Source of the DNA: Desulfosoma sp.
GTDB lineage: Bacteria > Desulfobacterota > Syntrophobacteria > Syntrophobacterales > DSM-9756
DNA length: 64,000 bases
Direction of reading: 5' to 3'
NCBI GenBank assembly: GCA_037481835.1
Contig: JBBFKW010000008.1
Coordinates: 1-64,000, forward strand
In this document: one piece after another, positions 13,026 to 55,600 of the stretch
Position numbering within the stretch: the stretch's first letter is position 1
Layout of the letters: every line of letters begins with the position of its first letter
The notes under the pieces: generated by a model
The model's input: only the letters and a program-made list of their open reading frames with translations
Databases searched by the model: none
Told to the model about the DNA's origin: nothing
Translations under genes and position numbers: made by a program

Positions 13026-14978
13026 ATGAGTCCATCGATCCGCGTGACCTTTCAACCGGAAAACAAGACGATTCTTGCCGAACCGGGCGAGACCCTGCTG
13101 GATGTGGCCGGCTCGGCGGGGATTTACATCAACAGCCTGTGCGGCGGCCAAGGGGTGTGCGGCAAATGCCGGCTCAAGGTGGTCAAAGGATCGGTGGAAT
13201 TCACCAGCAAGGGGGTGGGGTTCCTGGACCGCAAGGAAGTGGACGCCGGATACGTGCTCGCCTGCCAAGCCACGGTGAAGGATGAGGACATCGAGGTCTG
13301 GATTCCTCCCGAATCCCGTCAGGAAGAAGAACAAATTCTCATGGTGGACCACATCCTCCACTACACCCCCCCGGAAGTGATCGAGGAAGGGCGGGCGTCC
13401 GCGCCCATCCCCTATTTCAATCCCCTGTGCACGAAAATTTTCTTGCAGCTCCCTGAACCGTCGATCCAGGACAACCTTTCCGATCTTGAGAGAATTTATA
13501 GGGAACTCCACAAAAAATTCCCGGACGTGAAGTGGGAAGCGGATTTCGGGTGCCTCAAGAACCTCGGGCGACTCCTTCGAGACAACAATTGGCGGGTGAC
13601 GGCTCTGGCCCATATGCTGGACCCTCACTGTTATCATATTCGGGCTTTGGAGCCCGGGGACACGAGCCGGCGGAGTTACGGCGTCGCCATCGACGTGGGA
13701 ACGACAACCATCGTCACCCAGCTCATCGACCACAAAACGGGCCAGATCACGGCCGTGGAAGCCAGCCACAACCAGCAGGCCCGATACGGGGAAGATGTGA
13801 TTTCCCGTATGGTTTTCGCCTGCGGCCGCGGCGGCATGGACCCCCTGAAAAACGCCGTGGTCACGACCATCAACTCCTTGGTCAATTCCCTCGTGGCGGC
13901 GGCGGGGATCAGCCATCACGACATTATTTCCTTTGTGGCTGCGGGAAACACGACCATGACCCATTTGCTCCTCGGGCTGGAACCGTGCACGATCCGCCTG
14001 GAGCCGTACATCCCGACGGCCACGCGCTTTCCGTGGGCGCGGGCCGCCGACGTGGGCTTGATCGGCCATCCCGAGGCCATGCTGCACTGCATGCCGTGTG
14101 TGAGCAGCTACGTGGGCGGCGACATCACGGCGGGAGTCTTGGCGTGCGGAATGAACGACAAGCCGGAACTGAGCGCTCTGATCGACATCGGCACCAACGG
14201 CGAAATCGTCATCGGCAACAACGATTGGCTTGTGTGCTGTTCGGCGTCGGCCGGACCAGCCTTCGAAGGCGGCGGCACCAAATGCGGCATGCGTGCGACA
14301 AAGGGCGCCATCCAAAAAGTGCGCATCCGTGGGCATGAGACGGCCTATGAGACCGTCGGCGGAGGCAAAGCCAAGGGCATTTGCGGATCCGGGCTCATCG
14401 ATCTCATGGCCGAACTAGTGGCCGAAGACATTATCGACCAGAGCGGAAAATTCATTCGATTGGACCATCCTCACGTTCAGGTGATCGACGGCATTCCGGA
14501 GTTCGTCGTGGCTTATCCCCACGAAAGCGAAACGGGGCAGCCGGTGGTCATCACCCAGGACGACATCGGAAACCTCATGAAAAGCAAGGCGGCGGTTCTG
14601 GCCGCCATGAAGATCCTGCTGGAGAATTTGGGCTTGCGGTTCAGCGACCTGGAACGGATCTATGTGGCGGGAGGCTTTGGCGCCCATTTGGATATTGAAA
14701 AATCCATTCGGATCGGGTTGCTCCCCGACGTCCCCCTGGAACGCGTCCAGTTTATCGGGAACAGTTCGGTGGCCGGCGCCAGGCAGTGCCTGCTTTCCAC
14801 CCATGCCTTTCGCAAAGCCGGCGCCATCTCCCGGCAGATGACCTATTTCGAACTGTCCGTCCACCCGGGATTCATGAACGAATTCATCGCCGCCCTGTTC
14901 CTGCCGCACACGGATATGGAACTCTTTCCATCGGTGAAAACGTACTTGGCCCAGCGACGGGCACAGGCGGTGTCATAA
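13026..14978 (+). CDS. ASKHA/DUF4445 ATP-dependent reductive activator of corrinoid proteins (RACo/AcsV-like) with N-terminal 2Fe-2S domain
   Basis: CGGQGVCGKC...LAC; DVGTTTI, YGEDVISR, YVGGDI, DIGTNGE, AGPAFEG, GICGSG, AGGFG. Confidence 0.92.
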   Translation: MSPSIRVTFQPENKTILAEPGETLLDVAGSAGIYINSLCGGQGVCGKCRLKVVKGSVEFTSKGVGFLDRKEVDAGYVLACQATVKDEDIEVWIPPESRQEEEQILMVDHILHYTPPEVIEEGRASAPIPYFNPLCTKIFLQLPEPSIQDNLSDLERIYRELHKKFPDVKWEADFGCLKNLGRLLRDNNWRVTALAHMLDPHCYHIRALEPGDTSRRSYGVAIDVGTTTIVTQLIDHKTGQITAVEASHNQQARYGEDVISRMVFACGRGGMDPLKNAVVTTINSLVNSLVAAAGISHHDIISFVAAGNTTMTHLLLGLEPCTIRLEPYIPTATRFPWARAADVGLIGHPEAMLHCMPCVSSYVGGDITAGVLACGMNDKPELSALIDIGTNGEIVIGNNDWLVCCSASAGPAFEGGGTKCGMRATKGAIQKVRIRGHETAYETVGGGKAKGICGSGLIDLMAELVAEDIIDQSGKFIRLDHPHVQVIDGIPEFVVAYPHESETGQPVVITQDDIGNLMKSKAAVLAAMKILLENLGLRFSDLERIYVAGGFGAHLDIEKSIRIGLLPDVPLERVQFIGNSSVAGARQCLLSTHAFRKAGAISRQMTYFELSVHPGFMNEFIAALFLPHTDMELFPSVKTYLAQRRAQAVS

Positions 14979-24076: not shown

Positions 24077-25774
24077 CTAGTTCGGCTCAAAGAGATAGAA
24101 GCTCATGAGCCGGGGATCCGGAGGATTGTCCGCGGTGAAGTTTTCCGTCTCTTCGCGGTACCGATCGAGCAGGGACGCCACGTACATCCAGGCGAGGCGC
24201 CGAGATGGGGGATCCTCGATCCGGCGGTGGATCTCTTCTTGAAACACGGCCTTCAGCTTTTCGGGCGTCGCCTCCCTAAAGAGCGTCGGCCACAGGGACA
24301 CGGGGATCGGTTCCACGGCCCAGGAACCCGTGAGGAAGGTGGTCCCGGCAGCCGTAAAAAGGAGAACGCCCAGGGTCACTTCTTCCAAAATGCGCACCTG
24401 GCCTTCGGGCCACAGTCTCTTGCGAAGGTCTTCGGCCGAAACGGGCAGCCCAGAAAAGAGCGCCCCGAGGGATTCCACGACGGCGACGCATTGGCGGGCT
24501 TCGTGGAGATCCCGTCGGTCGTGGAGGAACGTTTCCACGAGCCGAGGCCGATCCACCCCCTCCAGGCGGCACATCTTGGGAGTTTTTTGAAGGAGGGCGC
24601 CGATTTTGTCCGCCCATGGGGCGTCCAGGATCGTGCGTCCCGTGGGCCATGCGGCAATCCACCCCTTGGTGACGATGGCCTTGAGCTTTCTTTGCAACCC
24701 GTAAACTTTTCCCTGGGCCGCGCGGAAGAGATGTTCCAGATAGACGCGTTCCAAAACGCCGTGGGCCAGGGATTCGTCCCCGGCGGTGAGCAGCTCCAAG
24801 CCCAAGTTGACCATGGCCGCCGCTTTTGCCGCCGCTTCGTGGAGATCTTCCGGAACGTCGGGAGCCAAGCCGTCGGCCACGACGATCTTGTTGGCGATGG
24901 CAGCCATTTCCCAGCGGAGCGCGTCGGCAACATGGGGATCGTCCAGGTCCGCCAGCACCCTCTGGAGCAAAGCCCCTTGTCGAACCACGGTGAGAGCGAA
25001 GCCCGGTGACGAAACCTCTTCGTCGTCCGAGACTGTGACGGGTACCGTCTTTTCGAAGGGGATGTCTCGAACATCAAGGGGCCTATAGATTTCCAGCGCG
25101 TCGTAGTAGTCCGGGATGGCCCGGTCTTCGAGACGCCCCCGGTGGAACCGATACGCCGCTTCTTCCATTTCGGGTTCCAACGCCCACAGGAGGTGGTCCA
25201 TGAGTTCCTTGTAAAAGCCGTAGTGCGTTTCGAATAGATAGCTCAGCACCTCGCGGATCAGGTCTTCGAACTGGGGGTAATTGGTTTCCCAAAAGTACTG
25301 GTCGTCCAGGGTGTTTTTGGGGAGAAAGTCCCGGGCTTCCAACGGGTCGGTCTCTTCGGGCATCTGGGCCACGCGGACCCATTTCTTGAATAGGGAAACG
25401 AGCAGTTCGAAATCCGCCGCGTAAAGCCACGCCAGAAGGCGCCTCGGATCGGCGCGAAACACCCTGTCCAGCCACTGGAGGCCCGGCCCGGGAAGGATCT
25501 GGTCCTTTCGCCACATTTCCAGATCGAAGACGTGCGTGATCTGGTCTACGGAGGCCAAGGCCAGGAGGGGCAACGCGTCTTCGGCGCCGATTTCCTTGAC
25601 CGTGAGGTAAAAATCCTGCTCGGGCATGGCCGCCACCACGGCCGCTGCATCCGGCCGGGCGATGATGGCCTCCATGCGCTGCTTGGCCGGAAGGGTCATG
25701 AGGTGCCGGACCATGGCCCGAGGCGGCAGTTTGCTTAATCGTTTGGTTTCAAAATCGATAACGTCTCTTTCCAT
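24077..25774 (-). CDS. Conserved hypothetical protein, DUF6178-like
   Basis: Long acidic helical ORF; LLALAS..QI..VFDLEMW.KD and EEAAYRFHRGRLED resemble DUF6178 proteins (recall only). Start may be 25774 or 25807. Confidence 0.6.
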   Translation of the reverse strand: MERDVIDFETKRLSKLPPRAMVRHLMTLPAKQRMEAIIARPDAAAVVAAMPEQDFYLTVKEIGAEDALPLLALASVDQITHVFDLEMWRKDQILPGPGLQWLDRVFRADPRRLLAWLYAADFELLVSLFKKWVRVAQMPEETDPLEARDFLPKNTLDDQYFWETNYPQFEDLIREVLSYLFETHYGFYKELMDHLLWALEPEMEEAAYRFHRGRLEDRAIPDYYDALEIYRPLDVRDIPFEKTVPVTVSDDEEVSSPGFALTVVRQGALLQRVLADLDDPHVADALRWEMAAIANKIVVADGLAPDVPEDLHEAAAKAAAMVNLGLELLTAGDESLAHGVLERVYLEHLFRAAQGKVYGLQRKLKAIVTKGWIAAWPTGRTILDAPWADKIGALLQKTPKMCRLEGVDRPRLVETFLHDRRDLHEARQCVAVVESLGALFSGLPVSAEDLRKRLWPEGQVRILEEVTLGVLLFTAAGTTFLTGSWAVEPIPVSLWPTLFREATPEKLKAVFQEEIHRRIEDPPSRRLAWMYVASLLDRYREETENFTADNPPDPRLMSFYLFEPN

Positions 25775-25967
25775 GATCCTCTCGAAAGAAGGCTCCGGGC
25801 ATGGCATGTCCCCAGGCGGAAGGCCGCGCGGGGCATAGACTCTTATTCGCCGGGGCGGTCAAAGTCAAGCCGCGGCCAAAGATTCCGCTTGATTGCGTGG
25901 GCTCGAATGCTTACGGTGATGCCTGGAAACGGCGCCGACACGGTGATCGAAACAAAGGAGTCCTCCT

Positions 25968-28483: not shown

Positions 28484-29890
28484 TCAGCCGGCGATGACCT
28501 TCTTAAGGTCGATTTGATACCGCTTCATGCGGTTCCACACCGTAACGCGGCTCACCCCCAGAAGACGGGCCGCCTCGCTTTGGTTTCCTCCGGCCTGCTG
28601 CAGCGCCTCGATGAGTTCTTGGCGCCGATCTCGCTTCTTAGACCGTGCCGAACTCCCGGATCCCGATAAAGAACTCACCGCCGTCGCCTCCACCGTGCAC
28701 ACGGCGCTTTGACCCTGGGTCACATGCGGGGGCAAATGTTCCGGTCGGATCAGGCCGTCTTCCGCCACGACGCAGGCATATTCCAATGTGCTTTTCAGTT
28801 CCCGCACGTTTCCCGGCCAATCGTAAGCCATGAGCGCCGCCATGGCCTGGGGATGGACGCCTTGAATGTTCTTTCCTTTGCGGCGCTGCTGGTCGAGGAA
28901 AACATCCACCAAGAGGGGCAGGTCTTCCATTCTGTGGCGCAAGGGGGGCAGGTGTATGGGAATGACGTTGATCCGGAAGAAAAAATCCTCGCGGAAGGCC
29001 CCTTCCCGGACCATTTTGGGAAGATCCCGGTTGGTGGCCGTAATGATGCGCACATCCACGGGAATGGGCCGGTGATCCCCGACCCGTTCCACGGTCTTGT
29101 TTTCCAGAACGCGCAGGAGCTTGACCTGGATGGACAGGGGCACGTCCCCGATTTCATCCAAAAAGATGTCTCCGCCGTTGGCCGCTTCGAAACGCCCTTC
29201 CCGGTGACTCGTCGCCCCCGTGAAGGCGCCTTTCACGTGGCCGAACAGCTCGCTTTCCAAGAGCGATTCATTGAGGGCCGCGCAGTTGACCTGGATGTAC
29301 GGGCCGTTGCGATGCGGCCCCAGGTCGTGAATGGCTCGGGCGATGAGCTCTTTTCCCGTGCCGCTTTCTCCGTAAATGATCACCGGAGCATCGCTTTGCG
29401 CCGCCTTTTCGGTCAGATCGAAGACCTTCTGCATGACGGGGGAGGTGCCGATGATGCCGCGAAAGCCCTTTTCACTGTCCAAGAGGCGGGAGAGGCGCAC
29501 GATCTGTTCTTCTTTGCGGTCCAGTTCGGAAATGTCCGTAAGGGTTTCCACGGCGCCGATGACCCGGCCGTTTTCATCCTTCAAAACGGAGGCGTTTTTA
29601 AGCACGTGCACGTAGCCGCCGTCTTTTCGCACGACGACGCACCGCTTGTGGTGCAGACTTCCCGAGACGAAAAGAGAGCACCAGACAGGGGCGCCGTCGC
29701 GCCGCTCCCCTTCGCAGCTGTCGCAGTGGAACAAAGTGCAGGACTTGCCCAGGAGTTCCTTCCGCGTGTAGCCGGTAATGCGGCAGAGCGCTTCGTTGAC
29801 CAAGAGGATGGATCCCTCCGGAGCGACCACCATCAGGCCGTCGTTCATCGTGTTGACGATCTGTTCCAAGTACGCGCGAATATCGGCCAT
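28484..29890 (-). CDS. Sigma-54-dependent transcriptional activator (Cys-rich PAS - AAA+ - Fis HTH), 468 aa
   Basis: GESGTGKE, ESELFGHVKGAFTGA, FLDEIG, WPGNVREL, GNQSEAARLLGVSR; ATG at 29890. Confidence 0.93.
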   Translation of the reverse strand: MADIRAYLEQIVNTMNDGLMVVAPEGSILLVNEALCRITGYTRKELLGKSCTLFHCDSCEGERRDGAPVWCSLFVSGSLHHKRCVVVRKDGGYVHVLKNASVLKDENGRVIGAVETLTDISELDRKEEQIVRLSRLLDSEKGFRGIIGTSPVMQKVFDLTEKAAQSDAPVIIYGESGTGKELIARAIHDLGPHRNGPYIQVNCAALNESLLESELFGHVKGAFTGATSHREGRFEAANGGDIFLDEIGDVPLSIQVKLLRVLENKTVERVGDHRPIPVDVRIITATNRDLPKMVREGAFREDFFFRINVIPIHLPPLRHRMEDLPLLVDVFLDQQRRKGKNIQGVHPQAMAALMAYDWPGNVRELKSTLEYACVVAEDGLIRPEHLPPHVTQGQSAVCTVEATAVSSLSGSGSSARSKKRDRRQELIEALQQAGGNQSEAARLLGVSRVTVWNRMKRYQIDLKKVIAG

Positions 29891-30219
29891 GCTTTCCCCT
29901 TCGATCCATTGCAGGCGGCGATGACCGAAGAAGCCGCGACAAGCGTCTTCCCCATGGGACGAAAGCCTTACCGCAGAAATCGGGCGTCGGCATTGCCGCA
30001 GGATTTGCGTTTCTCCGCTTGAAGACACCGAGATTTCTTTAATCCATTGGCTTTCAGAAAAAAAGTCCTCGAAGAATCCATGGATGGAACCGGTGGGATA
30101 GGGCCGCGGGCGTGGCGCAGTGGAAGGCGAGGGATTCGTCCCGAAGGGGCGCTGCCCCTTGCGCCGGGCGGGGCTGGAGTGCCTCCTTCGGGAAAAATCC
30201 ATGTGGCGGCGGGACTCTT

Positions 30220-30588
30220 TCAATACACCAGCGTGGCTTTGGCCTCCAGGATGTGCTGGGTCAAGGCTCCGGCGGCCGTCACTTGGGCGCCGGCAATGAG
30301 TTCGCTTTCCTCGATGCGCCGTTCCTTGATGCACGGGCCGCACACCAGGATTTTCCCTCCAGCGTCCACGTAGTTTTGGACCAGGTCCTTCAGGGGAGGG
30401 AGACCCGCCGCAAAGACGTGCTGCAGGCATCCGTGCGTGGCCAAAAACACCGCCGGTCCCTGGAGGACCACGACGGCTTCCACGTCCATGGCCTGGGCCG
30501 CGTTGGCCAACACGAAGGGAAGGCTTGCCCGTTCCGGGTCGTCCCCGGCATGGGTGACGATGTAGACGATCTTTTCCGTTTCGGCCAT
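30220..30588 (-). CDS. DsrE/DsrF-family protein
   Basis: THAGDDPERA.LPF..A, LQGPAV.LA, ILVCGPC..ER. Confidence 0.85.
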   Translation of the reverse strand: MAETEKIVYIVTHAGDDPERASLPFVLANAAQAMDVEAVVVLQGPAVFLATHGCLQHVFAAGLPPLKDLVQNYVDAGGKILVCGPCIKERRIEESELIAGAQVTAAGALTQHILEAKATLVY

Positions 30589-30670
30589 TGTGCAACTCCT
30601 TTTGATGGTGGTTTGATCCGCCGGGCGGCTTGGGTGGGCGTTGGGTCAAGCGAAGCGAAGCCCGAAAAAA

Positions 30671-31663
30671 TCACGGCCGCGCCTCAACACTCCCTGTCAT
30701 GCCCTCAGGGCGGGCATGGTTTTGCGATGGGGGCTCTAAAAAGTTTCTGACAAGGTAGGATGCGAAATCCTGCACGTCCGCACCAACCTTCTTGAGGTTC
30801 CCCAAGCAGATGGGACACATGGCAAGGATCGGGGCTCCGGTTTTCTCCAATTGGGCGACCCGACGTTCCATGATCTGCCGGGACAACGTGGGCGAAACCG
30901 ATTCGGCCGGGCCGCCGCAGCAATGGGTGAGCGTCCCCGACTGCTGCACGTCGCAGACCGTCACTCCCGCTTGGCGAAGCACTCGGCGCGGCACGTGAGA
31001 CACCTTCAGGTACCGGCCGAAAAAGCAGGGATCGTGCACCGTCACCCGGTGCCCGTTTTGGGGCGCATGGATGCGCAGCAGTTCGAAGTAAGGCCGCACG
31101 TCGAAAGAAACCCCAACGAACTTGGGATACAAGACCTTGAAGGCGTAAGTTGTGTGCGGGTCCACGGTGATGAGCGTTTTCGCACCGGCGTGCGTCAGCC
31201 GACCGGCCACGAATCGGGCGTGCTCCAAAAAGGCGTCGTAGTCGCCCAGATCGTAGAGGAGGATCCCACTGTAGAAGTCCAGTTCCGGCCGGTAGGCAAA
31301 CCGGATGCCCGAATGGCGAAGGAGTTTCACCACGTCCTGGAGGATCCGATCATACGGGGCCCGCTCCTTGGGCCTGACCATGAAGAGGGATCCCAGTTGC
31401 ACGAGTCTCTTGGGAATCCACGTGCCGTAGCCCACAAAGGGCGCCCAGCGTGTGTCTTCCAAGCGCTCCAGGTGCCCCGTGATCTTTTCGATGAAGGGCA
31501 CGGATTGGACCATCAATCCCGTGGCCAATAGGGTGTCGCCGTCCCGGCTCAGCCCCATGCCTTTCCACCATCGGTTCATGGCCCACGGAAAGGCCCCGAA
31601 GGGATTTCGAGTCGCCCGCACGTTGCCCGCAATGAGATCAATGATCGACTTGGGATGATACAT
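30671..31663 (-). CDS. CCG-domain (HdrB/HdrD-like) Fe-S protein
   Basis: NPFG N-terminus; HDPCFFGR, HCCGGP, MCPICLGNL; ATG at 31663. Confidence 0.85.
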   Translation of the reverse strand: MYHPKSIIDLIAGNVRATRNPFGAFPWAMNRWWKGMGLSRDGDTLLATGLMVQSVPFIEKITGHLERLEDTRWAPFVGYGTWIPKRLVQLGSLFMVRPKERAPYDRILQDVVKLLRHSGIRFAYRPELDFYSGILLYDLGDYDAFLEHARFVAGRLTHAGAKTLITVDPHTTYAFKVLYPKFVGVSFDVRPYFELLRIHAPQNGHRVTVHDPCFFGRYLKVSHVPRRVLRQAGVTVCDVQQSGTLTHCCGGPAESVSPTLSRQIMERRVAQLEKTGAPILAMCPICLGNLKKVGADVQDFASYLVRNFLEPPSQNHARPEGMTGSVEARP

Positions 31664-31967
31664 GACCGTTTCTCCTCCAATGGTGGAGCACATAGCGGCG
31701 AAGAGCCAATATGAGCTCGCCGGGATCGGCTTCCCGCGGGCAGGTCTGGGTGCACAAGCCGCAGTGAAGGCACCGCCACAGATCCGCCCCCCGTTCGAGG
31801 ATCCGATCGACGGCGCCGATTTGGGCGTAGCGGATCATCCTCCGAGGGAAATGCTCTTCGATGAGCGGACAGATGGCGGCGCAGGTGCCGCAGTGAAAAC
31901 ATTCCAGGGTTTTGGCCGCCCCGAAACGTTCCAGTTCCTCGGAAAACGACAGGTTGACGAGAGCCAT
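31638..31967 (-). CDS. HdrC-like 2x[4Fe-4S] protein (109 aa)
   Basis: CFHCGTCAAICP...PRR..R..Q.G...LWRCLHCGLCTQTCP. Confidence 0.88.
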   Translation of the reverse strand: MALVNLSFSEELERFGAAKTLECFHCGTCAAICPLIEEHFPRRMIRYAQIGAVDRILERGADLWRCLHCGLCTQTCPREADPGELILALRRYVLHHWRRNGHVSSQVDH

Positions 31968-32111
31968 CGAAGGCCTCCATGGGGTCTGAAAGGACCGGTT
32001 TTCCACTTGTGGGCCGGAGGTTGGAAGACATCTCCGCCCTGTTACCCTCTCCCCTCCCCCAAGGGGGAGTGGAAATCTCTTGCCTGAGTGGCTTCTCTTC
32101 TCAAAACCGCC

Positions 32112-32444
32112 CTATTGTGATGCAGGGCGGGAATCGTTCGCCGGGCCTGTTTCAGCCAGGCGGTAAGCAAAGTAGGCGCCCCTTTTTTCCCCTTCCGCGA
32201 GCAGGCCGTACTTTTTCAGCGAGGCCGTCCACCATAGGACCTCATGGGCGGGCAGGCCGGTCGCTTCCGCCATCTCCGGCACCGTTTTCGCTCCACTGCG
32301 AAGCGCCTCCGTCAGGGCCGCAATAATTTTCTTTTGCGCCTTCACGTCCGCCGTGACGCGCTGCACGGTGTCCTTGCGAAGAGCCCGCATTCGTTTAAGG
32401 ATTTCCCTGTGCGCTGACTTTTTCGAAACCTGTTCCCCTTCCAT
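32112..32444 (-). CDS. Small winged-helix (HTH) protein
   Basis: ALRSGAKTVPEMAEATGLPAHEVLWWTASLKKYG...GAYFAY winged-HTH pattern. Confidence 0.7.
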   Translation of the reverse strand: MEGEQVSKKSAHREILKRMRALRKDTVQRVTADVKAQKKIIAALTEALRSGAKTVPEMAEATGLPAHEVLWWTASLKKYGLLAEGEKRGAYFAYRLAETGPANDSRPASQ

Positions 32445-32486
32445 GGTTTTATCCTTTTGCGTTTTTCGAAAAATTTTCCGCACACG

Positions 32487-34415
32487 TTACGCCGCCTGGT
32501 CCGAGACGATGGCATCCACCATGGCTTCAAACTGGGCCAACGTGGAGCCCTTGACCTGGATGGCGCCTGTAGGGCACACGGCGACGCATGCGCCGCAGCC
32601 GAGGCAGAGCGCGGAAACCACTTGAGCCCGGCGCACCGTCCGGCCGTCTTTTTCCGTTTCCACCATGCGGATGGCCCCGTCCCGCAGGCAGGCGTCCACG
32701 CAGGCCCCCGTGCCTTCGCATTTTTCCGGGTCAACTTCCGCGACGAAAGGATCCAGTTGGACGGAGCCTTTGGCCAGAAGCACGGCGGCCTTTGAGGCCG
32801 CCGCAGAAGCGGCGTTGCACGATTCGCCGATATCCATGGGCGCCTGGCAGGTCCCGGCGAGCAAAAGACCGGCGGTCGCCAGTTCCACGGGCCGCAGCTT
32901 GGGATGCACTTCCAACAAGAAGCCGTCCGCGCCCACGGGAAGCTTCATCATGTCCACGAGATCCCCGATATCCGAGGGTTCCATGCCCACGGCGAGGACG
33001 ACCAGGTCGGCGGGGATTTCCACCTCTTCGCCGAATGTCAGAGTGTCTTGAACACGAACGACGATGGGAAACGGGAAGGTGCCCTCGGAGCGTTCCACCC
33101 GGGGCGGGTTTTCGGGTTCGAACCTCAGGAAGAGAACCTTGTTGCGCGCCGCCTGCTGGTAAAGCTCCTCCTGTCCTCGGCCGTAAGCTCGAATGTCCCG
33201 GTACAATTCAAACACCCGCGTGCCGGGAAAACGTTCCCGAACCTGGTTGGCGGCGAAAAGGGTCGCCGAACAACACGTGCGCGAACAGTACTCGTTCAGG
33301 CGCCCGGAGGCGTTTTCCTCATGAATGCCGGGAATCTGGCGGCTTCCCACGCAGTGGATCATGGCGATGCTGCGGATGGGCCGTCCCCTGAAGGTCAAGA
33401 GGGCACCGGAGGGGTCGGCGTCCCGGAGAGCCTCGACGAATTCGGGAAGTGTGATCACTTCCGGGAATTCTTCATAGCCGTATTCTCCCCGGCGCGGCGT
33501 GTAGGGCTTGAATCCGGTGGCGAGAACCACAACGCCGGTTTCCACGCGAAACCGGTTCTTGGCCTTCGGAGCGGGGCGGATCAGGGCGCCTTTGGACGGA
33601 ACGTAGACGGGACCGTTTCCGGTCAAGGCCTCTTCGGCACGGCGCAGGGTGTCGTCCGCTTCCTGAAGTGGTGCCGTTTCCACCTCCAGCGAGAAGTTCC
33701 CGACGTAGCCTTCAAAGCCCACGATGCGCGCACAGGGATGAAAGGCGATGGAGCCGTGTTCTGAAATGCGCCGGGCCAGGGACAGGATGAGTTCGCAGGC
33801 CGGCTCGCCCGTCGGGGCCACACGGTCCAGGGCCGCCGTGCGGCCGCCCATCCACGGCGTTTTTTCCAAGAGATCCACGGCAAACCCTCTTTCCGCAAGA
33901 TCCAGGGCTGCGCGCATGCCGGCGATCCCCGCCCCGATCACCGTCGCGTGCTGTTTCGCCTCCACCCGCAGCGGTTCCAGGGCTTCCAGCCGACGTGCTT
34001 TGGCGGCCGCCGCCGCGATGAGTGTGAAGGCCTTGTCCGTGGCGGCATCCCCGTGATGCACCCAGCTTACCTGTTCCCGGATGTTTGCGTGTTCGTACAC
34101 GTAGGGGTTGACCCCGGCCCGTTCCAGGACGCGCCGGAACGTCGTCTCATGGAGGCTCGGCGAGCAGGAAGCCACCACCACCCGGTCCACGAGGCCTTGT
34201 TTCAGGTCGTCCAAGATGAGTTCCTGGCCTGGGTCGGAACACATGAACATGTTGCGCCGAGCCGTCACCACCCCCGGGATGCTCTGCGCCCTCTCACAGA
34301 GGGCCTCCACATCCACATGATCCGAAATGTTTCCGCCGCAATGGCAGATATAGACGCCCACACGCGCTTCTTTCGCCTCGTTCGGGGACGGTTTGTCACG
34401 ATTTTCCATGGACAT
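32487..34415 (-). CDS. HdrA-family flavoprotein with N-terminal Fe-S domain and C-terminal ferredoxin (642 aa)
   Basis: GVYICHCGGNI, FMCS, ASCSP, GAGIAG, CVGSR, YCSRTCC, HPKLRP, CLGCGACVAVCP; ATG at 34415 with AAGGAG RBS. Confidence 0.9.
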   Translation of the reverse strand: MSMENRDKPSPNEAKEARVGVYICHCGGNISDHVDVEALCERAQSIPGVVTARRNMFMCSDPGQELILDDLKQGLVDRVVVASCSPSLHETTFRRVLERAGVNPYVYEHANIREQVSWVHHGDAATDKAFTLIAAAAAKARRLEALEPLRVEAKQHATVIGAGIAGMRAALDLAERGFAVDLLEKTPWMGGRTAALDRVAPTGEPACELILSLARRISEHGSIAFHPCARIVGFEGYVGNFSLEVETAPLQEADDTLRRAEEALTGNGPVYVPSKGALIRPAPKAKNRFRVETGVVVLATGFKPYTPRRGEYGYEEFPEVITLPEFVEALRDADPSGALLTFRGRPIRSIAMIHCVGSRQIPGIHEENASGRLNEYCSRTCCSATLFAANQVRERFPGTRVFELYRDIRAYGRGQEELYQQAARNKVLFLRFEPENPPRVERSEGTFPFPIVVRVQDTLTFGEEVEIPADLVVLAVGMEPSDIGDLVDMMKLPVGADGFLLEVHPKLRPVELATAGLLLAGTCQAPMDIGESCNAASAAASKAAVLLAKGSVQLDPFVAEVDPEKCEGTGACVDACLRDGAIRMVETEKDGRTVRRAQVVSALCLGCGACVAVCPTGAIQVKGSTLAQFEAMVDAIVSDQAA

Positions 34416-34443
34416 TCTCCTTGGAAACCGGCGGTGCGGCGGC

Positions 34444-35754
34444 TCAGGCTGCACGCCCCGCCACCTTCTTGCGCCCGGCCAGATAGGTCGCCGCATGCAT
34501 GGCGGCGGCGCTCGCCTCCGCAATGCTGTCCACAATATCCTTGGGGCCTGCCGCCGCGCCGGCGGCAAAGATGCCCGCCTCACCCGTCCAGGTCGGGGCG
34601 AGCTTGGGTTCGGGGCCTGAGATGAAGCCGTCGGATCCCGTCATGATGGGCGCCCGACCCGCCGGGTTCCACCCGGGAACCTTTCCGAGGGACAAGACCA
34701 CAAGATCATGGGACGCCGCACTCACGCCGCCGTCCATCTGATCTTCGTATCGCACGGTCACGGAACCGTCTTCGCCCGGTTCGATCAAGGCTACCTTGGC
34801 CTTGACGAAGCGGATACCCATGGCCTGCGCGTTTTGGAAAAACTGCTCGTAGTTCTTCCCGAAGGCGCGGATGTCCATGTAATAGATGGTAATGTCCGCA
34901 AGGGGGAGCGCCCCGGAAAGGAGCATGGCCTGCTTGATGGCATACATGCAGCACACCCTGGAACAATACGGAATCCCGAGGCTTTTGTCCCGCGATCCGG
35001 CGCACTGGACGAAGGCGATGGAATCGGGTTCCCTGCCGTCGGATGGACGGAGCACTCGGTTGTACGGCCCGTGGGGCGCCAAGAGCCGCTCCATCTGGAG
35101 CGCCGTGATGACATTGGGGACCGCGCCCCTGCCGTACTGGGCCTTGTCCTCCAGGGGGGTCACGGAAAAGCCCGTGGCGACGACAGCCGCGATGGCTTCG
35201 ATGACGAGAGTGCGGGGTTCCTGGTCGTAGCGCACGGCGTCGGTGGGGCACACCGTCGCGCAGGTGCCGCACAGCATGCAGTGGTCCGGATCCATGACGG
35301 CGATTTGAGGAACCGCGTTGGAAAAGGGGACGCAAATGGCTTTTCGGGCGGCGAAGTTGCCCTGGTCCGGGTCGGGCACGTAAACCGGGCAGTGGTATTC
35401 GCATTGGCGACACCCGATGCAGCGCGTCTCGTCCACATAGCGGGGTTTTTTCCGCACCTGAGCCCGGATCATGCCCGATGCGTCCCTTTGTAGAGTTTCC
35501 AGCTCGCAGTAAGTGAAGAGCGTGATCTTTTCGTGGTGCGCCGCCGCGGCCATTTTGGGGGTCGTGATGCAGCTGGCGCAGTCCAGAGTGGGAAAAACCT
35601 TGGACAGGCGGATCATGGTGCCGCCGATGGTCGCGTCCTTTTCCACGACGGCCACCGAATAGTCCTGGTCCGCCAGGTCCAGCGCCGCCTGAAGACCGGC
35701 GATCCCTCCTCCGATCACGAGCGCATCGAAGCGATGGGTTTCATGCGATGCCAT
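34444..35754 (-). CDS. HdrA-family flavoprotein with inserted ferredoxin domain (436 aa)
   Basis: GGGIAG, KVFPTLDCASCI, CIGCRQCEYHCP, CMLCGTCATVCP, CAGSRD, YCSRVCCMYAIK, GPKDI. Confidence 0.92.
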   Translation of the reverse strand: MASHETHRFDALVIGGGIAGLQAALDLADQDYSVAVVEKDATIGGTMIRLSKVFPTLDCASCITTPKMAAAAHHEKITLFTYCELETLQRDASGMIRAQVRKKPRYVDETRCIGCRQCEYHCPVYVPDPDQGNFAARKAICVPFSNAVPQIAVMDPDHCMLCGTCATVCPTDAVRYDQEPRTLVIEAIAAVVATGFSVTPLEDKAQYGRGAVPNVITALQMERLLAPHGPYNRVLRPSDGREPDSIAFVQCAGSRDKSLGIPYCSRVCCMYAIKQAMLLSGALPLADITIYYMDIRAFGKNYEQFFQNAQAMGIRFVKAKVALIEPGEDGSVTVRYEDQMDGGVSAASHDLVVLSLGKVPGWNPAGRAPIMTGSDGFISGPEPKLAPTWTGEAGIFAAGAAAGPKDIVDSIAEASAAAMHAATYLAGRKKVAGRAA

Positions 35755-35766
35755 AAGGGTCCTTTC

Positions 35767-36225
35767 CTACGCCGTCATCGCCCGGGGCGTCTCAGCACCC
35801 GGCGTCGTGGGCGGGCTTTCCGTGCCCGGCGGTCCCAGCTCCTGGACGAGGGCGTGCATCTGCTTCACTTCGTTGACGAAGGCCCGGGTGCACACGGTGC
35901 AGATGGACGTCAGCCGCAGGCGCCGAATGTCCAGGCCGCGTTCCTTCATGATCTGGTAGACGCGGTCGATGCACTTGGCCAAGGCCTCGTAGGCTCCCTC
36001 GTAAGGGCATTCCACCCCGCAGCTCATGACGATGATCCCGGCAATGCCCTTGGCGAAACAGTCCAGATAGAACTTTTCCGGGAAGAGCACCGGAGCCTTC
36101 ACCTTGATGATGTAGGTGTTGGCGGGGTAGCTCATGTGCGCCTGCCCGACGGCATCGGCCCCCGGGTAGGCGCAGCTTTCCGTCGCCAAAATCAGGATCT
36201 TTCCCTTATAGGGCGCGGTGTCCAT
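35767..36225 (-). CDS. MvhD/FlpD-like [2Fe-2S] protein (variant Cys pattern)
   Basis: CAYPGAD..G.....YP.N..II, GI.GIIV.SCG.ECPY, GLD.RRL; located directly upstream of hdrA. Confidence 0.8.
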   Translation of the reverse strand: MDTAPYKGKILILATESCAYPGADAVGQAHMSYPANTYIIKVKAPVLFPEKFYLDCFAKGIAGIIVMSCGVECPYEGAYEALAKCIDRVYQIMKERGLDIRRLRLTSICTVCTRAFVNEVKQMHALVQELGPPGTESPPTTPGAETPRAMTA

Positions 36226-36237
36226 GACGTATCCCCG

Positions 36238-36492
36238 TTACTTCTTGCGCATGACGAAGATGCGCTCGTAGCCGTCGGCGGGAAGATGCCCCAAGTACTC
36301 GTGCCCCACCTTTTTCGCCCAGACGGGGATGTCGTTTTTCGTGCCCGGATCGTTGGAAAGGATTTCCAAAACATCGCCGACCTTGACCTTGCCAATGGCC
36401 TTCTTGGCTTCCAAAAGGGGGCCCGGGCAGGCGCTGCCTCGAGCGTCCACAACCGAGGCGGGCTGAAGGTTTTGCAGATCCATGGATGTCAT
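36238..36492 (-). CDS. tusA: TusA/SirA-family sulfurtransferase (84 aa)
   Basis: VDARGSACPGPLL, GDVLEILSNDPG..NDIPVWA..VGH; AGGAG RBS 7 nt upstream of ATG 36492. Confidence 0.88.
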   Translation of the reverse strand: MTSMDLQNLQPASVVDARGSACPGPLLEAKKAIGKVKVGDVLEILSNDPGTKNDIPVWAKKVGHEYLGHLPADGYERIFVMRKK

Positions 36493-36556
36493 CGTCTTGC
36501 TCCTTTTGCTCATGGGCTCACATCGATGTTTTCCAAAACCGTCGCCCACACTCAGG

Positions 36557-36571
36557 GCAAAGCCCGTGCCA
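36557..36571 (-). promoter_or_regulatory. Sigma-54 (-24/-12) promoter of the tusA-hdr operon
   Basis: Minus strand reads TGGCACG-GGCT-TTGC, an exact match to TGGCACG-N4-TTGC. Confidence 0.85.
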
Positions 36572-36709
36572 GGCGGGTCTTTCCCCATAAGGGGCGCCGT
36601 TTCCCAAGGATCCGCCGGCTTTGCCTCCCCCCATCCCCCCATGCCGCTTGCGCCTTCGAAAAAGGCGCGGGGCCGCACTCCCCATGGAACGCGCCCCTGG
36701 GGAACAGTG

Positions 36710-36748
36710 TGTTAAAGTCTGAACAGATGTTTTGTTCATGATTAAACA
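36710..36748. promoter_or_regulatory. Tandem enhancer-like palindromes TGTT-N8-AACA
   Basis: TGTTAAAGTCTGAACA (36710-36725) and TGTTCATGATTAAACA (36733-36748), 23 bp apart, AT-rich, between two sigma-54 promoters. Confidence 0.7.
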
Positions 36749-36841
36749 GGCGCTAAATTTTGGGGGCACACAAGGGGGGATGCATTTTATCGAGGCGTCA
36801 TTATTCAACTTATGGCACAAGAGGGAGGAGGCCCTAGGGTT

Positions 36842-36857
36842 CGGCAAGATTGTTGCT
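36842..36857 (+). promoter_or_regulatory. Sigma-54 promoter of the divergent dsrE gene
   Basis: CGGCAAGATTGTTGCT: GG(36843-44)-N10-GC(36855-56), ending in TTGCT. Confidence 0.65.
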
Positions 36858-36960
36858 TAAGGGGGTGTCCCTTGAGCGTCGGGAGGCCCCGGGCGGTGCT
36901 GGAGGCGGCCGCACGGGGGTTGGGTCGGGATCCATTTGTCGAGAGGAAAGGAGAAAGGCC

Positions 36961-37320
36961 ATGAAGTTATGTTTTGTCATTTCCATCGGATTCGAGCGGT
37001 CGGGGTCTGCGACGCGGGCCATGCAGTTTGCAAGCATCGCCGCCGAGCAAGGGCATCACGTGGAGGTCTTCCTCATCGACGATGCCATTCATTGGGCGCA
37101 GATCGGCATGGCGGAAGGGATCCGCTCTTCGACGGGCGAGCACATGAAAGACCTTCTGGACACCCTCATCGCCCGAAAAACCCCCATTCACGTGTGCAAG
37201 GCCTGTGCGGACAAGCGGTTGGTCTCGCCCGATGACCTCATCGCAGGGGCGGTCATTTCGCCGGCACCGGTCCTTGTAAAGATGATCGGCGATCCCGAGT
37301 ACAAGGTCCTGACTTTTTAG
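36961..37320 (+). CDS. DsrE/DsrF-family protein (119 aa)
   Basis: RAMQFASIAAEQGH.VEVFLIDDAI, IHVCKACADKR; AGGAG RBS. Confidence 0.85.
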   Translation: MKLCFVISIGFERSGSATRAMQFASIAAEQGHHVEVFLIDDAIHWAQIGMAEGIRSSTGEHMKDLLDTLIARKTPIHVCKACADKRLVSPDDLIAGAVISPAPVLVKMIGDPEYKVLTF

Positions 37321-52643: not shown

Positions 52644-55600
52644 TCACAGCGACAGGATGTCGGCCAAGCGTTTCTTTTCCGCGGCGGCGCCATCCCATGC
52701 CGGGAAGGCCCCCCCGAAGAACAGCGCAGCCCACTCCTGGTAGACGGCTTCAAGGGTTTGCGGGAACGGAGCGCCGTCTGCGGCCATGAGGCGGCAGAGC
52801 ACGTCCCAATCGGGAAGGCTTTCGCCCTGCTGCGCCAACCCTTTTGCCAACGAGAGCAAGCGGCCTTCCTGATTGACGATGATCCCCGTCTGTTCCCCGA
52901 AAGCGGCCGTAGGGAGCACCACGTGAGCCCATGAAGCCGCGGGGCCGAGAACGTTTTCCTGGAGCACGAGAAATTCAAGCCGGCCGAGCGATTCCAGGGC
53001 TTCCCTGGAGGCTTCTTCCACCAGGGCGCTATCCTGGAGGTACAGGGCGCGGATCCTCCCTGCAGAAACGGCTTCCATGACCCCGGTTTCCGGGGGAGCG
53101 GGAAGTTCTGCCCCGTCCCACAATTCCCGGATCCTGGCAAGTCCTTGGGCGTCGTCGAAAGACGTCCATCCCGGAAGGCGAGTCGGGCTCATCCCCACCA
53201 GGCACGCACCCACGGCGTTGGCATAGGGAGCCGCGAAAAAGAGCCCCGCGCCGTCCTTCTTGGCCGCGGCTTTCATGACGGAAACGAGAGCCCGGGCCGC
53301 CTGCATCGTTCGGTGGAGCGCCGGATCGGCCAGGTGTTCAAGAGGGGCCAGATCCAAGACGACGGCTGCGCTCCCCACGGCGGCGATGCCGTTGGCGAGG
53401 CTTTCCAAAACGTTCTTTTCGGCGGGCTCCAGGCAAACCCCTTTCAAGCTTTGCACCGCCTCGACCCCGAAGACCTTTTTGAGCGCCTCCAGCCCCTTGT
53501 CTCCGAACTTTTCCGCGCACTGCAAGGCCAGGCACGCCAAGAGATCCGGCCATTTCGCGCTGTCCGCAACGCTCGACAGTGCAGGGGCTCCTCGAAGACT
53601 TTCGGGCACTCGGCCCAAAACCCACAAGGGCACCCGAGCCTGATGCACCGCCCGGCGGATGGATGTGACCGTCACGGGGTTGGTGTCTTCGATCCGGTCT
53701 CCGACGAGGAGGATGGCCGGGGCCTGGGCGAGATCGGCCATGGGGGGCGCCAAGGATCGTCCCCCGTCGGCAAGGAGCCCGTAAAGCAGCGCCCCTTCGG
53801 CACTCCTTCGCCCCAGGGTATCCACGTACGGGGTTCGAAACCGCGTCCGCATCCATCGCTGCAGCAGATAGAGCCCCTCGCAGCTGAACCGCGGGGATCC
53901 CAAGGCGCCCACCGCTTCCGGTCCGTGTTTTTCCGCCGCCGCCTTCAGTCCCTGCAGGGCCGTTTCCAGGGCCTTCCCCCAGGACGCCTCGCGCAGCTCT
54001 CCGTTTTCGCGCACCAGGGGTTTGGTCGCGCGTTTTCCGCGCCAATGGTCGTCGTAAGCGCGGAATCGCCCTCTTCGGCAGGTGGATGCCCGGTTCGGGG
54101 CCGTGTCTCGGCCGTCGGCGATCCACACCAGGCGCTCGCCTTTGACCTTGAGGTCCACTTCGCAGCCGTAGCCGCACTGGATGCAGTGCGTCGGCACGGA
54201 CGCCCAATCCAGCCGTTCTACCGGGCGCCCCTGGCGGCGTTCCATGAGCGCCCCGGTGGGGCACAGGTCCACACACAACCCGCAGGAGACGCATCGGTCG
54301 TTGAATTTGGGCCAATCCTTGAAATCAATGGCGTTGCTGCACTGGAAGGTGCGGCACGCCACGTAGCAGCGTTCGCAGCGGATGCACTTGTTGGGGTCTA
54401 GGGCGATGACGGGATGGGTGTCGATGGCCGCCACGCGCTGGAAATGGATTTTCTTGCTGGGCTGTTCCCGCCAATCCACCTGGAACTCGTTCATGAGTTC
54501 CCGCAGGCGGCAATCGAAGGCGGCGCTACAGCCGCACACCAAACATCGCTCCGCCTCCCTCTTGGCCTGGGCTTCGTCCAAGCCCAGTTCCACTTCCATA
54601 AAGCTTTGCACACGCCGGGACACTTCCACTTCCGGCATGCGTTCCCGCGGGATGACTTTGTAGACCCCGAAAGGTTCCTTGTCGATCTCCTGCAGATCGC
54701 CTTTGCTGATGTTGAAATGCAAGGGTTCGGGTTCCACCTTGCCCGCCTGGAAAAATCGATTCAGGGAATAGGCGGCCTTGCGGCCGTCCGCCAGAGCGGC
54801 CACAACGGTCATGGGACCCCGGAACAAGTCGCCGCCCACGAAGATCATTTCCGCCCCCGTGTGCATGCTGCGCGGATCCCCGCCGATGGTGCTCCATCGG
54901 GTGATGGGGATCTTTTCCATGCCGGGGTCTTGGTCCGGGGTGAGCACCACCGGGTACTGGCCGATGGCACTGATGACCTGGTCCACGTCCAGAAGGGTTT
55001 CGGAGCCTTCCACGGGCACCGGGCGTCGGCGGCCGCTGGCATCCGGCTCCCCCAGTTCCATGCGGATGAATTCCAACTGCCGGACCCGGCCGTTGTCCCC
55101 GAGAACCCGCGTAGGCGCTGCAAGCAGGTGGATTTCCACGCCTTCGGCTTCCGCCGCTTCGATTTCCTCGTGGCTTGCGGGCATTTCCTTTCGAGACCGT
55201 CGATAAAGGATGGTCACCTTTTCGGCTCCGAGCCGAAGCGCCGACCGGGCGGCGTCGATGGCCACGTTGCCGCCGCCGATGACACACACGCGGCGGCCCA
55301 CCTTGACGGGTTTTCCGGCCCCGATGTTTTCCAAAAAATCCACGCCGCTTTCCACGCCCTCCAGGTCTTCGCCCACGATGCCCAACTTCCGGCTGGCCCA
55401 AGCGCCGATGGCCAGGAAAATGGCCCCGAAGCCTTCCTTCTTGAGATCATCCAGGGTGAAATCGCGGCCCCAGGCAACGCCGGTGCGCACGCGAACGCCC
55501 AGGCTGAGAATGCCGTCGATTTCCCAGTCGAGAATCTTCTTGGGCAGGCGGTATTCGGGAATGCCGTAGCGGAGCATCCCGCCCAGTTTTTCGCGGGCTT

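Follow-up and report, generated by a model that had tools for sequence, protein, structure and literature searches.

The first 64,000 nucleotides (nt) of contig JBBFKW010000008.1 of Desulfosoma sp., analyzed whole and hereafter called the window, contain at positions 28,484 to 37,320 an operon in which genes for the sulfur carriers TusA and DsrE stand together with genes for a predicted heterodisulfide reductase (Hdr)-type flavo-iron-sulfur complex and for a sigma-54 activator. Genes were called from the open reading frame (ORF) listing together with Pfam and NCBIfam scans, which recovered all ten genes named in a preliminary description of this DNA, in the same order and on the same strands. 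Minus-strand transcription runs through tusA, an mvhD-like gene, hdrA1, hdrA2, a small winged-helix gene, an hdrC-like gene, a gene for a protein bearing a CCG cysteine motif (the CCG protein), dsrE1 and a PAS/sigma-54 activator gene, and a second DsrE gene, dsrE2, lies on the plus strand, divergent from this run. Domain scans of the window also bore out the earlier statement that genes for hydrogenase, formate dehydrogenase, Flx, Apr and lipoate-binding proteins are absent from the locus, which is flanked by sufC and sufBD on one side and by a metallo-beta-lactamase-fold gene and an old yellow enzyme (OYE) flavoenzyme gene on the other.

The tusA gene (36238..36492, minus strand; 84 amino acids, aa) matches Pfam TusA at E 1.4e-20 and has sub-threshold NCBIfam matches to TusA and YedF; a longer ORF extends to 36678, and the most likely start at 36492 agrees with an invariant first methionine in the alignment of relatives. 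Its CPGP cysteine is conserved in 98% of 58 sequences. Both DsrE proteins carry a CxxC motif. The gene dsrE1 (30220..30588, minus strand; 122 aa; Pfam DsrE E 8.6e-20), an ORF of its own in a different frame, encodes C83 in 100% and C86 in 96% of 69 sequences, and its nearest solved structure is the DsrE/DsrF-like 3mc3 (E 1e-4), with a cysteine of which C83 aligns. The product of dsrE2 (36961..37320, plus strand; 119 aa; Pfam DsrE E 8.6e-21) resembles YchN/TusD, its nearest solved structure being YchN 1jx7 (E 1.6e-05). The active-site cysteines of the sulfur carriers, the CPxP cysteine of TusA and that of DsrE, are present.

Both HdrA-type flavoproteins have NF040770 as their best NCBIfam model (E 1.3e-135 and 3.7e-150, both far under the model cut-off), and their parts were assigned using the domain boundaries of 5ODC. 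The short one, hdrA1 (34444..35754, minus strand; 436 aa), comprises the flavin adenine dinucleotide (FAD) core and the inserted 2x[4Fe-4S] ferredoxin domain, without the N- or C-terminal domains; its residues 10-424 align with residues 142-560 of methanogen HdrA (8rvv_A, E 5.2e-116; 5odc_A, E 4.4e-111), and its Fer4 motifs lie at residues 107-176. The long one, hdrA2 (32487..34415, minus strand; 642 aa), has the N-terminal iron-sulfur domain, the FAD core and the C-terminal ferredoxin domain, and matches 5odc_A (E 1.2e-127) over nearly the full HdrA length in two stretches with a gap at the inserted domain, its residues 246-289 holding no cysteine motif; that is, the inserted ferredoxin domain is missing. 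From these domain sets hdrA1 and hdrA2 appear to be complementary parts of one HdrA: a single full-length HdrA with all four domains is not present in the operon, the domains being divided over the 436-aa and 642-aa proteins. Cysteines 251, 264, 268 and 269 of hdrA1 and 355, 377, 381 and 382 of hdrA2 are invariant in relatives, and the invariant C...C...CC motif beside the flavin is kept in each. Matches to the sHdrA structure 6tjr_A reached E 1e-37 for the short HdrA and 2.6e-23 for the long one, against 1e-111 to 1e-127 for methanogen HdrA; hdrA1 is therefore far nearer to methanogen HdrA (E 5e-116) than to sHdrA. The divergent mvhD-like gene (35767..36225, minus strand; 152 aa) encodes a [2Fe-2S] protein matching Pfam FlpD at E 9.2e-21 with 74.6 bits, compared with 115-185 bits for the other MvhD domains of the genome, and six of its cysteines are conserved at 96% or more.

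The hdrC-like gene (31638..32006, minus strand; 122 aa, a conserved methionine suggesting a start at 31967) encodes a 2x[4Fe-4S] protein whose eight cysteines, in two [4Fe-4S] motifs, are invariant in 80 sequences. It is matched best by the HdrC-like N-terminal part of QmoC (NF038018, E 1.1e-23, over positions 2-96 of the 360 in the model), and next by HdrC itself (TIGR03290, E 5.5e-14), both under their cut-offs; the operon hence has both an HdrC with two [4Fe-4S] motifs and an MvhD, each divergent and under the NCBIfam cut-offs. The CCG protein (30671..31663, minus strand; 330 aa) contains one Pfam CCG domain (E about 1.3e-09 to 1.4e-09). Cysteines C213, C248, C249, C283 and C286, all in its C-terminal half, are invariant in 81 sequences, and residues 1-200 hold no conserved cysteine in the same sequences, which leaves one intact CCG motif. 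Its predicted structure (predicted local distance difference test, pLDDT, 86.0; predicted template modeling score, pTM, 0.85) matches EtfD (9ojn, E 1.8e-10), LutA and methanogen HdrB (8rwn_B, E 5.2e-06; 5odc_B, E 1.5e-05) over the whole length, so that the modeled protein is HdrB-like in fold from end to end. Methanogen HdrB has two CCG cysteine motifs and two non-cubane clusters. The 26 nt at 31638-31663 belong both to the start of the CCG gene and to the end of the hdrC-like gene; other loci have these genes abutting. The winged-helix protein (32112..32483, minus strand; at most 123 aa, the start being uncertain) contains no cysteine and had no significant family in Pfam or NCBIfam and no sequence match in the PDB; its AlphaFold model (pLDDT 87.7) consists of one long helix (residues 5-61) followed by a winged helix, with generic ArsR/MarR-like fold matches (best E 2.1e-3). 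We also considered a DsrD-like allosteric role for this protein and found nothing that supports it.

Conservation was evaluated in relatives of the CCG protein. In a scan of one genome per species, 393 genomes were found to encode a relative, and the best 80 loci were analyzed together with flanks of at most 10 kb per side (loci are cited below by L numbers where needed); synteny counts take only loci whose contig reaches the expected position, here called eligible. Hosts of the 80 loci include Desulfacinum, strain NaphS2, Desulfatiglandales, Desulfobacterales, Desulfosarcina, Syntrophobacteraceae and one Archaeoglobaceae metagenome-assembled genome (MAG). In a large protein collection, 1017 of the 2729 candidates scored were relatives at E <=1e-5, the best 120 of them being 51-90% identical, about 310 aa long and uninformatively named (e.g., 'Fe-S oxidoreductase'), and 153 representatives of 50%-identity clusters matched at E <=1e-30. 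Relative to the CCG gene, the hdrC-like gene was collinear in 78/78 eligible loci, the winged-helix gene in 77/77, hdrA2 in 66/67, hdrA1 in 57/58, mvhD in 55/57, tusA in 55/56 and dsrE1 in 68/73. With the order kept in 55-78 of 56-78 eligible loci per gene, the arrangement is far beyond chance, and the eight-gene order extends to the locus of the Archaeoglobaceae MAG (L073). The five loci that miss dsrE1 comprise three with another DsrE-family gene (L011, L015, L029), one with two rhodaneses (L049) and one with too little downstream sequence. The expectation that tusA and a DsrE-family gene stay beside homologous hdr clusters, on which the earlier proposal depended, is thereby borne out. The divergent dsrE2 is rarer, with orthologues at 78-93% identity in only three of the 80 loci (L001, L003, L041). 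A selenocysteine-containing DsrE was rejected as an explanation in eight loci in which dsrE1 is missing or weak: none has an in-frame stop at the CxxC position, and three carry another DsrE subtype.

Several relatives carry additional genes for sulfur trafficking, namely two rhodaneses in NaphS2 (L021), a second TusA together with a YeeE/YedE-type transporter in L006 and two more DsrE genes in L073, and in L070 a thioredoxin gene adjoins the regulator. A second, weaker TusA-like gene (27-36% identity) precedes the operon tusA in L006, L008, L012, L016, L025, L048, L066 and L077, that of L006 being confirmed as TusA by Pfam, and in many loci the sigma-54 promoter precedes the main tusA by about 300 nt, a distance that fits an additional first gene. 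Upstream of the two extra DsrE genes and the operon in L073 (1235-2581, plus strand) lies a gene for a 448-aa pyridine-nucleotide-disulfide oxidoreductase with a dimerization domain, which might be of the NAD(P)H-dependent persulfide reductase or coenzyme A (CoA)-disulfide reductase type. A second Qmo-like set, composed of a short HdrA, an HdrA-like protein fused to MvhD, an HdrC-like protein and a CCG protein (Pfam run in L036), follows dsrE1 in L036, L037, L040, L044 and L059 and lies further off in L015, L026, L035 and L054. L063 retains the winged-helix gene, hdrC, the CCG gene and dsrE1, with no match for HdrA, MvhD, TusA or the activator upstream on a contig that continues; this could be a rearrangement or masked sequence. 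Searches of the 80 loci at E 1e-10 with queries from this genome returned no AprA, AprB, DsrA or GcvH-like match, the last of these with one GcvH-domain query, which a distant LbpA could escape, and a Pfam scan detected no MvhAG hydrogenase or Fdh donor in the locus of the window or among 47 flanking ORFs of six related loci.

The activator gene and the tusA promoter recur in most related loci. The activator gene (28484..29887, minus strand; 467 aa) encodes a PAS domain (PAS_9, E 7.6e-17), an AAA+ sigma-54 interaction domain (Sigma54_activat, E 1.9e-70) that includes the GAFTGA motif, and a C-terminal helix-turn-helix (HTH_8, E 4.9e-13). The raw ORFs of 721 and 698 aa are too long, and conservation in relatives places the likeliest starts of the activator at 29887 (467 aa) and of hdrA2 at 34415 (642 aa). 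Five cysteines of the PAS domain (Cys50, 55, 58, 70 and 83) are conserved at 98-100% in 54 sequences; by sequence the domain returned generic PAS/LOV-type matches only, and no solved PAS domain with these five cysteines. An activator orthologue stands beside the operon in 47 of the 53 loci with enough flank and in another orientation in two more; it is divergent upstream of tusA in 45/53, and in the window and two other loci it lies downstream on the operon strand. A sigma-54 (-24/-12) promoter, TGGCAC-N5-TTGC, lies at 36557..36571 on the minus strand, preceding the tusA ATG at 36492 by 65 nt, and is the sole match without mismatch in the window. Since matches with up to two mismatches are no commoner in the window (63) than in shuffled sequence (mean 68), the case for this promoter is made by the exact match and its conservation: at <=1 mismatch the motif occurs within 400 nt upstream of tusA in 47/56 related loci, compared with 39/1560 random windows from the same loci, and among the remaining upstream regions six have it with two mismatches and three, one of them archaeal, lack it. 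The evidence is weaker for dsrE2, which is preceded by a candidate promoter with two mismatches (CGGCAA-N5-TTGC, 36842..36856, plus strand); in both Desulfacinum loci this element is closer to consensus (TGGCAG-N5-TTGC, reverse strand of the alignment). Alignment of the tusA-dsrE2 intergenic region from four loci yielded only promoter-like elements and no usable upstream activator site, and searches for sigma-70 promoters and terminator-like sites returned 0 and 11, respectively, no more than in shuffles. The activator's domains, its GAFTGA motif and the -24/-12 promoter are those of a sigma-54 enhancer-binding protein regulon as judged from sequence, and the exact tusA match, its conservation in relatives and the candidate dsrE2 element support the description of the locus as a self-contained sigma-54 regulon.

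The electron-input side of the operon is more variable. Six genomes of a phylum sample (401 genomes, described below) have a weaker CCG match (E 1e-60 to 1e-75) that represents a sister subfamily, with the same gene order in 4/4 fetched loci and a CCG identity of 31-38%. In the one such locus examined, the position of the short HdrA is taken by a 747-aa HdrL-type protein, the flavin core of which is interrupted by a GltD-like Fer4_20/NAD(P)-binding module. This replacement suggests that the substrate end (HdrC, CCG, TusA and DsrE) is kept while the electron-input end varies, and it is the strongest hint that the complex exchanges electrons, in either direction, with soluble reductants; it points to such reductants, and not to hydrogenase, as the likely partner.

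The host genome (3.63 Mb, 38 contigs) encodes dsrAB. It also contains, on another contig than the operon, an aprBA-qmoA-qmoB cluster followed by a gene for a 386-aa protein with two CCG motifs (G000 C4:34000-45000, L094), and a separate qmoABC (G000 C2:86000-99000, L095) whose QmoC scores 210 bits against a family cut-off of 300; with dsrAB, aprBA-qmoAB and qmoABC, the organism is a Dsr/Apr-type sulfate reducer with its own Qmo. The genome has about ten HdrA/MvhD modules, distributed over contigs C2, C5, C10, C11, C12 and C13, and in several of these a short and a long HdrA are fused into single proteins of 900-1500 aa. One Hdr cluster (G000 C5:131000-146000, L091), adjoining folD, combines a 318-aa GcvH-domain protein with a CCG-type HdrB, HdrA fusions of 1502 and 921 aa and an MvhD; a GcvH-like protein among Hdr genes is reminiscent of the lipoate-binding proteins that sHdr systems have.

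Across the phylum, in an even sample of 401 genomes searched for the CCG gene at E <=1e-50, the gene is patchy, with 21/401 genomes positive (18/340 of those of high quality) and a same-genus genome of 99% completeness lacking it. The gene dsrA was present in 204/401 genomes and in 20/21 of the CCG-positive ones, the exception being 90% complete. The same-genus genome and two genomes of the same family keep a DUF6178-sufC-sufBD block with no operon beside it, and this, with the patchy occurrence, suggests that the operon is an accessory unit that moves as a whole. A linkage of the operon to suf was rejected, as the neighborhood is not conserved in relatives. Apart from two runs that may be the source of this DNA, the sequencing runs that share at least half of the operon's sequence words are two hot-spring metagenomes of one study, with no RNA run listed. 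Elsewhere in the window, the DUF6178 protein of this conserved block (576 aa) is encoded at 24077-25807 (minus strand), a RACo-type corrinoid activase at 12975-14978 (plus strand) and, about 15 kb away from the operon and outside the locus, a 1238-aa fusion at 52644-56360 (minus strand) of a 2Fe-2S domain, a GltD-like Fer4_20/NAD(P)-binding flavoprotein and an FdhA-like molybdopterin oxidoreductase, which resembles a formate dehydrogenase linked to NAD(P)H and built as one polypeptide.

The relationship of the two HdrAs to other HdrA-type proteins was assessed in a maximum likelihood tree of 35 sequences, comprising the operon proteins of seven loci, the genome's paralogues, its four Qmo proteins and one second-copy pair, from which two duplicate rows of full-length paralogues had been taken out. 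The hdrA1 and hdrA2 proteins each form a clade of their own (support 100/100 and 100/99, respectively), and the archaeal copy is basal within each. The four Qmo proteins of the genome, from the apr-linked QmoAB and from QmoABC, form a clade (100/98) separate from both, and the operon HdrAs are 23-36% identical to these proteins versus 38-43% to the other HdrA paralogues. The earlier proposal was to be abandoned if the HdrA pair fell inside an already characterized complex; relative to this genome's Qmo proteins, the only characterized complex in the tree, the pair falls outside.

We hold with moderate confidence that the operon encodes a soluble, sigma-54-switched Hdr/Qmo-like flavo-iron-sulfur complex acting on the sulfane sulfur of TusA and DsrE, most likely by reducing carrier persulfide or polysulfide to sulfide, with assembly of the complex, its substrate and the direction of the reaction being read from gene content. 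Action on carrier-bound sulfur is suggested by the fixed TusA and DsrE-family members with their conserved active-site cysteines, by the extra sulfur-transfer genes in relatives and by the HdrB-like catalytic subunit. The reductive direction is favored because the hosts are reductive-type sulfur organisms, because the HdrAs are of the reductive, bifurcating methanogen type, because a lipoate carrier is lacking, and because the operon is accessory and separately switched, as would suit an occasional substrate or stress. Its role would accordingly seem to be an accessory one, in the handling of S0 and polysulfide or in sulfane-sulfur stress, and not in core sulfate reduction.

In the mechanism that we envisage, the five-cysteine PAS domain of the activator would, conjecturally, sense sulfane sulfur or redox state and the activator would fire the tusA and divergent dsrE promoters. 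DsrE, through its CxxC motif, and TusA, through its CPGP cysteine, would take up sulfane sulfur as cysteine persulfides, and DsrE would hand its sulfur to TusA, as DsrE3-type proteins do in sulfur oxidizers. TusA-persulfide would then dock on the HdrB-like subunit, where the single non-cubane-type cluster site would cleave the S-S bond, free H2S and regenerate the carrier. The electrons would come from the flavin of an asymmetric HdrA1/HdrA2 heterodimer and be relayed to this site by HdrC, the pair of HdrAs jointly supplying the domains of one electron pathway of the methanogen HdrA dimer. MvhD and the ferredoxin-type domains would connect that flavin with low-potential carriers of the cytoplasm, perhaps with electron bifurcation or confurcation.

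Several points weigh against this reading. The closest TusA/DsrE-linked Hdr-like system, sHdr, is oxidative. The active-site chemistry may differ from that of any known Hdr, because the CCG protein has one intact motif where methanogen HdrB has two clusters. The energetics, bifurcation included, are conjectural, because the operon encodes no obvious electron donor; the preliminary description had pointed to this lack, which stands for the locus itself and is qualified by the roughly ten HdrA/MvhD modules of the genome and by the HdrL-type protein of the sister subfamily. The co-occurrence counts come from related, non-independent genomes and serve as description, not as a test. Finally, the winged-helix protein has no assigned role.

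An oxidative direction is the first alternative to be weighed: the complex would oxidize TusA/DsrE-bound sulfane sulfur in the manner of sHdr, with ferredoxin or NAD(P)+ as electron acceptor, while a sulfate reducer oxidizes sulfide or sulfur or carries out disproportionation. According to the available part of the sHdr literature (PMC11094781), sHdr clusters are the known Hdr-like systems always found with TusA and DsrE genes, and dsrA accompanies the CCG gene in nearly all positive genomes of the phylum sample. Against it, the locus has no lipoate-binding protein and the single GcvH-like query found none in the 80 loci, the HdrAs are methanogen-type and not sHdrA-type, and type I sHdr has two HdrB and two HdrC genes where the operon has one HdrB-like and one HdrC-like gene. 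The operon further contains an MvhD, which to our knowledge occurs in no sHdr system. On this balance we regard the oxidative direction as unlikely.

The components could also form a thiol-disulfide relay, in which the substrate of the HdrB-like subunit would be a protein disulfide or trisulfide, either the DsrE CxxC once a persulfide has been resolved there or some unlinked protein, for instance DsrC, and TusA and DsrE would be redox shuttles. The CxxC conserved in dsrE1 and present in dsrE2 and the thioredoxin gene beside the regulator in L070 are in keeping with such a relay, as are published proposals that tie Hdr-like complexes of sulfate reducers to DsrC (PMC5947623, PMC10504309, in the parts available to us). 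The 80 loci returned no DsrA match beside the operon, dsrC itself not having been searched, and the rhodaneses, extra TusA copies and YeeE-type transporter of the relatives suggest sulfur transfer instead; we consider the relay distinctly improbable.

Much less credible is the possibility that the operon is an alternative Qmo, a 'type II QmoAB-HdrCB' that would deliver electrons to adenosine 5'-phosphosulfate (APS) reductase or another unlinked reductase and in which the sulfur carriers would be incidental. Its architecture is Qmo-like, with a short and a long HdrA paralogue and an HdrC-like protein best matching QmoC, and type II QmoAB and QmoAB-HdrBC have been reported with function unknown, as far as the accessible text of PMC10504309 goes. 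The genome, however, already has aprBA-qmoAB-CCG and a separate qmoABC, the 80 loci gave no AprA or AprB match, the Qmo clade does not include the HdrA pair, hardly any eligible locus lacks tusA or a DsrE-family gene, and only 20 of the 204 dsrA-positive genomes sampled carry the operon. We likewise give very little credence to a biosynthetic role, in which TusA and DsrE would serve transfer RNA thiolation, molybdenum cofactor or Fe-S assembly or selenium trafficking and the redox module would keep the carriers reduced, since, for all that the operon adjoins sufC/sufBD in the window, that its TusA has sub-threshold matches to TusA/YedF and that dsrE2 resembles YchN/TusD, sufC matches occurred in just 4 of the 80 loci and at 23-25% identity, the suf blocks of same-genus and same-family genomes have no adjoining operon, and a seven-subunit flavo-iron-sulfur machine with its own sigma-54 switch is out of scale for housekeeping thiolation.

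Extending the preferred reading, reduction of carrier-bound sulfane sulfur, we tentatively raise a bolder possibility that is less likely to hold than the reading itself: the operon may represent an unrecognized cytoplasmic 'carrier-persulfide reductase', in which an asymmetric HdrA heterodimer would couple the reduction of TusA sulfane sulfur at a single non-cubane cluster to turnover of ferredoxin or NAD(P)H by bifurcation or confurcation, serving energy-linked respiration or detoxification of zero-valent sulfur in some sulfate reducers and archaea, under the control of a new cysteine-rich PAS/sigma-54 switch that senses sulfane sulfur.

Little is understood of the way in which sulfate reducers deal with zero-valent and protein-bound sulfur in their cytoplasm. 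Such sulfur species arise from sulfide re-oxidation, from polysulfide and from the cells' own Dsr chemistry, and they bear on disproportionation and on 'cryptic' sulfur cycling in sediments. By joining an Hdr-type redox engine to the two sulfur-carrier families that are known best, the operon offers a concrete, testable candidate for a missing step in this handling, and it does so as a compact module in several hundred species. For enzymology, the asymmetric HdrA heterodimer and the HdrB with one cluster site could inform the mechanism of heterodisulfide reductase and of flavin-based bifurcation, and the activator is a possible new sulfane-sulfur sensor. Cultured carriers, namely Desulfacinum infernum, D. 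hydrothermale and strain NaphS2, make experiments feasible.

The operon appears to be undescribed in print: full-text literature searches returned no description of a tusA-mvhD-hdrA-hdrA-...-dsrE arrangement, a passing mention being possible. The nearest published mention appears to be the uncharacterized 'type II QmoAB / QmoAB-HdrBC'; in the available text of Neukirchen et al. 2023 (PMC10504309), type II QmoAB are closer to HdrA than to bacterial Qmo, QmoAB-HdrBC occurs in some Deltaproteobacteria, and the functions are unclarified. The type II set described there may include the operon. With QmoABC and QmoAB-HdrCB the operon shares the short and long HdrA-derived flavoproteins, an HdrC-like module that best matches the N-terminus of QmoC, an MvhD-type module and Dsr-type sulfate-reducing hosts. 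It differs in that its MvhD is separate and divergent and not fused to the long subunit, in having no membrane or heme part and an HdrB-like subunit with one CCG motif only, in being unlinked to aprBA, in the position of its HdrA pair outside this genome's Qmo clade, and in its fixed tusA, dsrE and winged-helix genes and sigma-54 control; orthology to QmoA/QmoB, a heme-b membrane QmoC, a two-motif HdrB and aprBA linkage were all absent.

Methanogen HdrABC-MvhAGD (5ODC, 8RVU) provides the closest sequences to both HdrAs, and also has an HdrC-type 2x[4Fe-4S] protein, an HdrB of like fold and MvhD. In the operon, by contrast, HdrA is split into two complementary, non-identical proteins, the HdrB-like protein keeps one of the two cysteine motifs, the MvhAG hydrogenase is missing, and sulfur-carrier genes take the place of coenzyme M/coenzyme B metabolism. 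Hydrogenase-less modules of HdrA or HdrL with MvhD are also reported from Desulfobacterota, in Desulfobacterium autotrophicum (PMC2702500) and, as HdrABC/HdrL, in Syntrophobacter fumaroxidans (PMC5947623), and the HdrL-type protein of the operon's sister subfamily resembles these. The available texts of these papers link none of the modules to sulfur carriers (neither contains 'DsrE', and 'SirA' is absent from PMC2702500 and 'TusA' from PMC5947623). The operon of the window differs further in having no NAD(P)H module. Among regulators, FisR-type sigma-54 activators sense persulfide. The activator described here resembles them as a sigma-54 enhancer-binding protein beside sulfur-handling genes with conserved cysteines in its sensory part, and is distinguished by a PAS sensor with five conserved cysteines for which sequence comparison gave no solved counterpart.

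The sHdr-LbpA system of sulfur oxidizers is likewise an Hdr-like iron-sulfur flavoenzyme genetically tied to TusA and DsrE, with rhodaneses in some operon relatives as a further parallel (PMC11094781, in the part available). There, TusA receives sulfur from DsrE3-type proteins and makes contact with proteins of sHdr (PMC11094781); sHdr-LbpA is cytoplasmic and acts on protein-bound sulfane sulfur, which is the action that we propose for the operon. Unlike sHdr-LbpA, the operon has no genes for a lipoate-binding protein or lipoate ligase, and it combines methanogen-type HdrAs bearing ferredoxin domains with an MvhD, one HdrB-like and one HdrC-like gene in place of two each, and Dsr-type sulfate-reducing hosts. 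In its gene set, gene order, conserved cysteines, promoters and the separation of its HdrAs from the genome's Qmo, the operon extends the known Hdr/Qmo-type complexes by one with a link to a sulfur relay, on whose carriers it would probably act.

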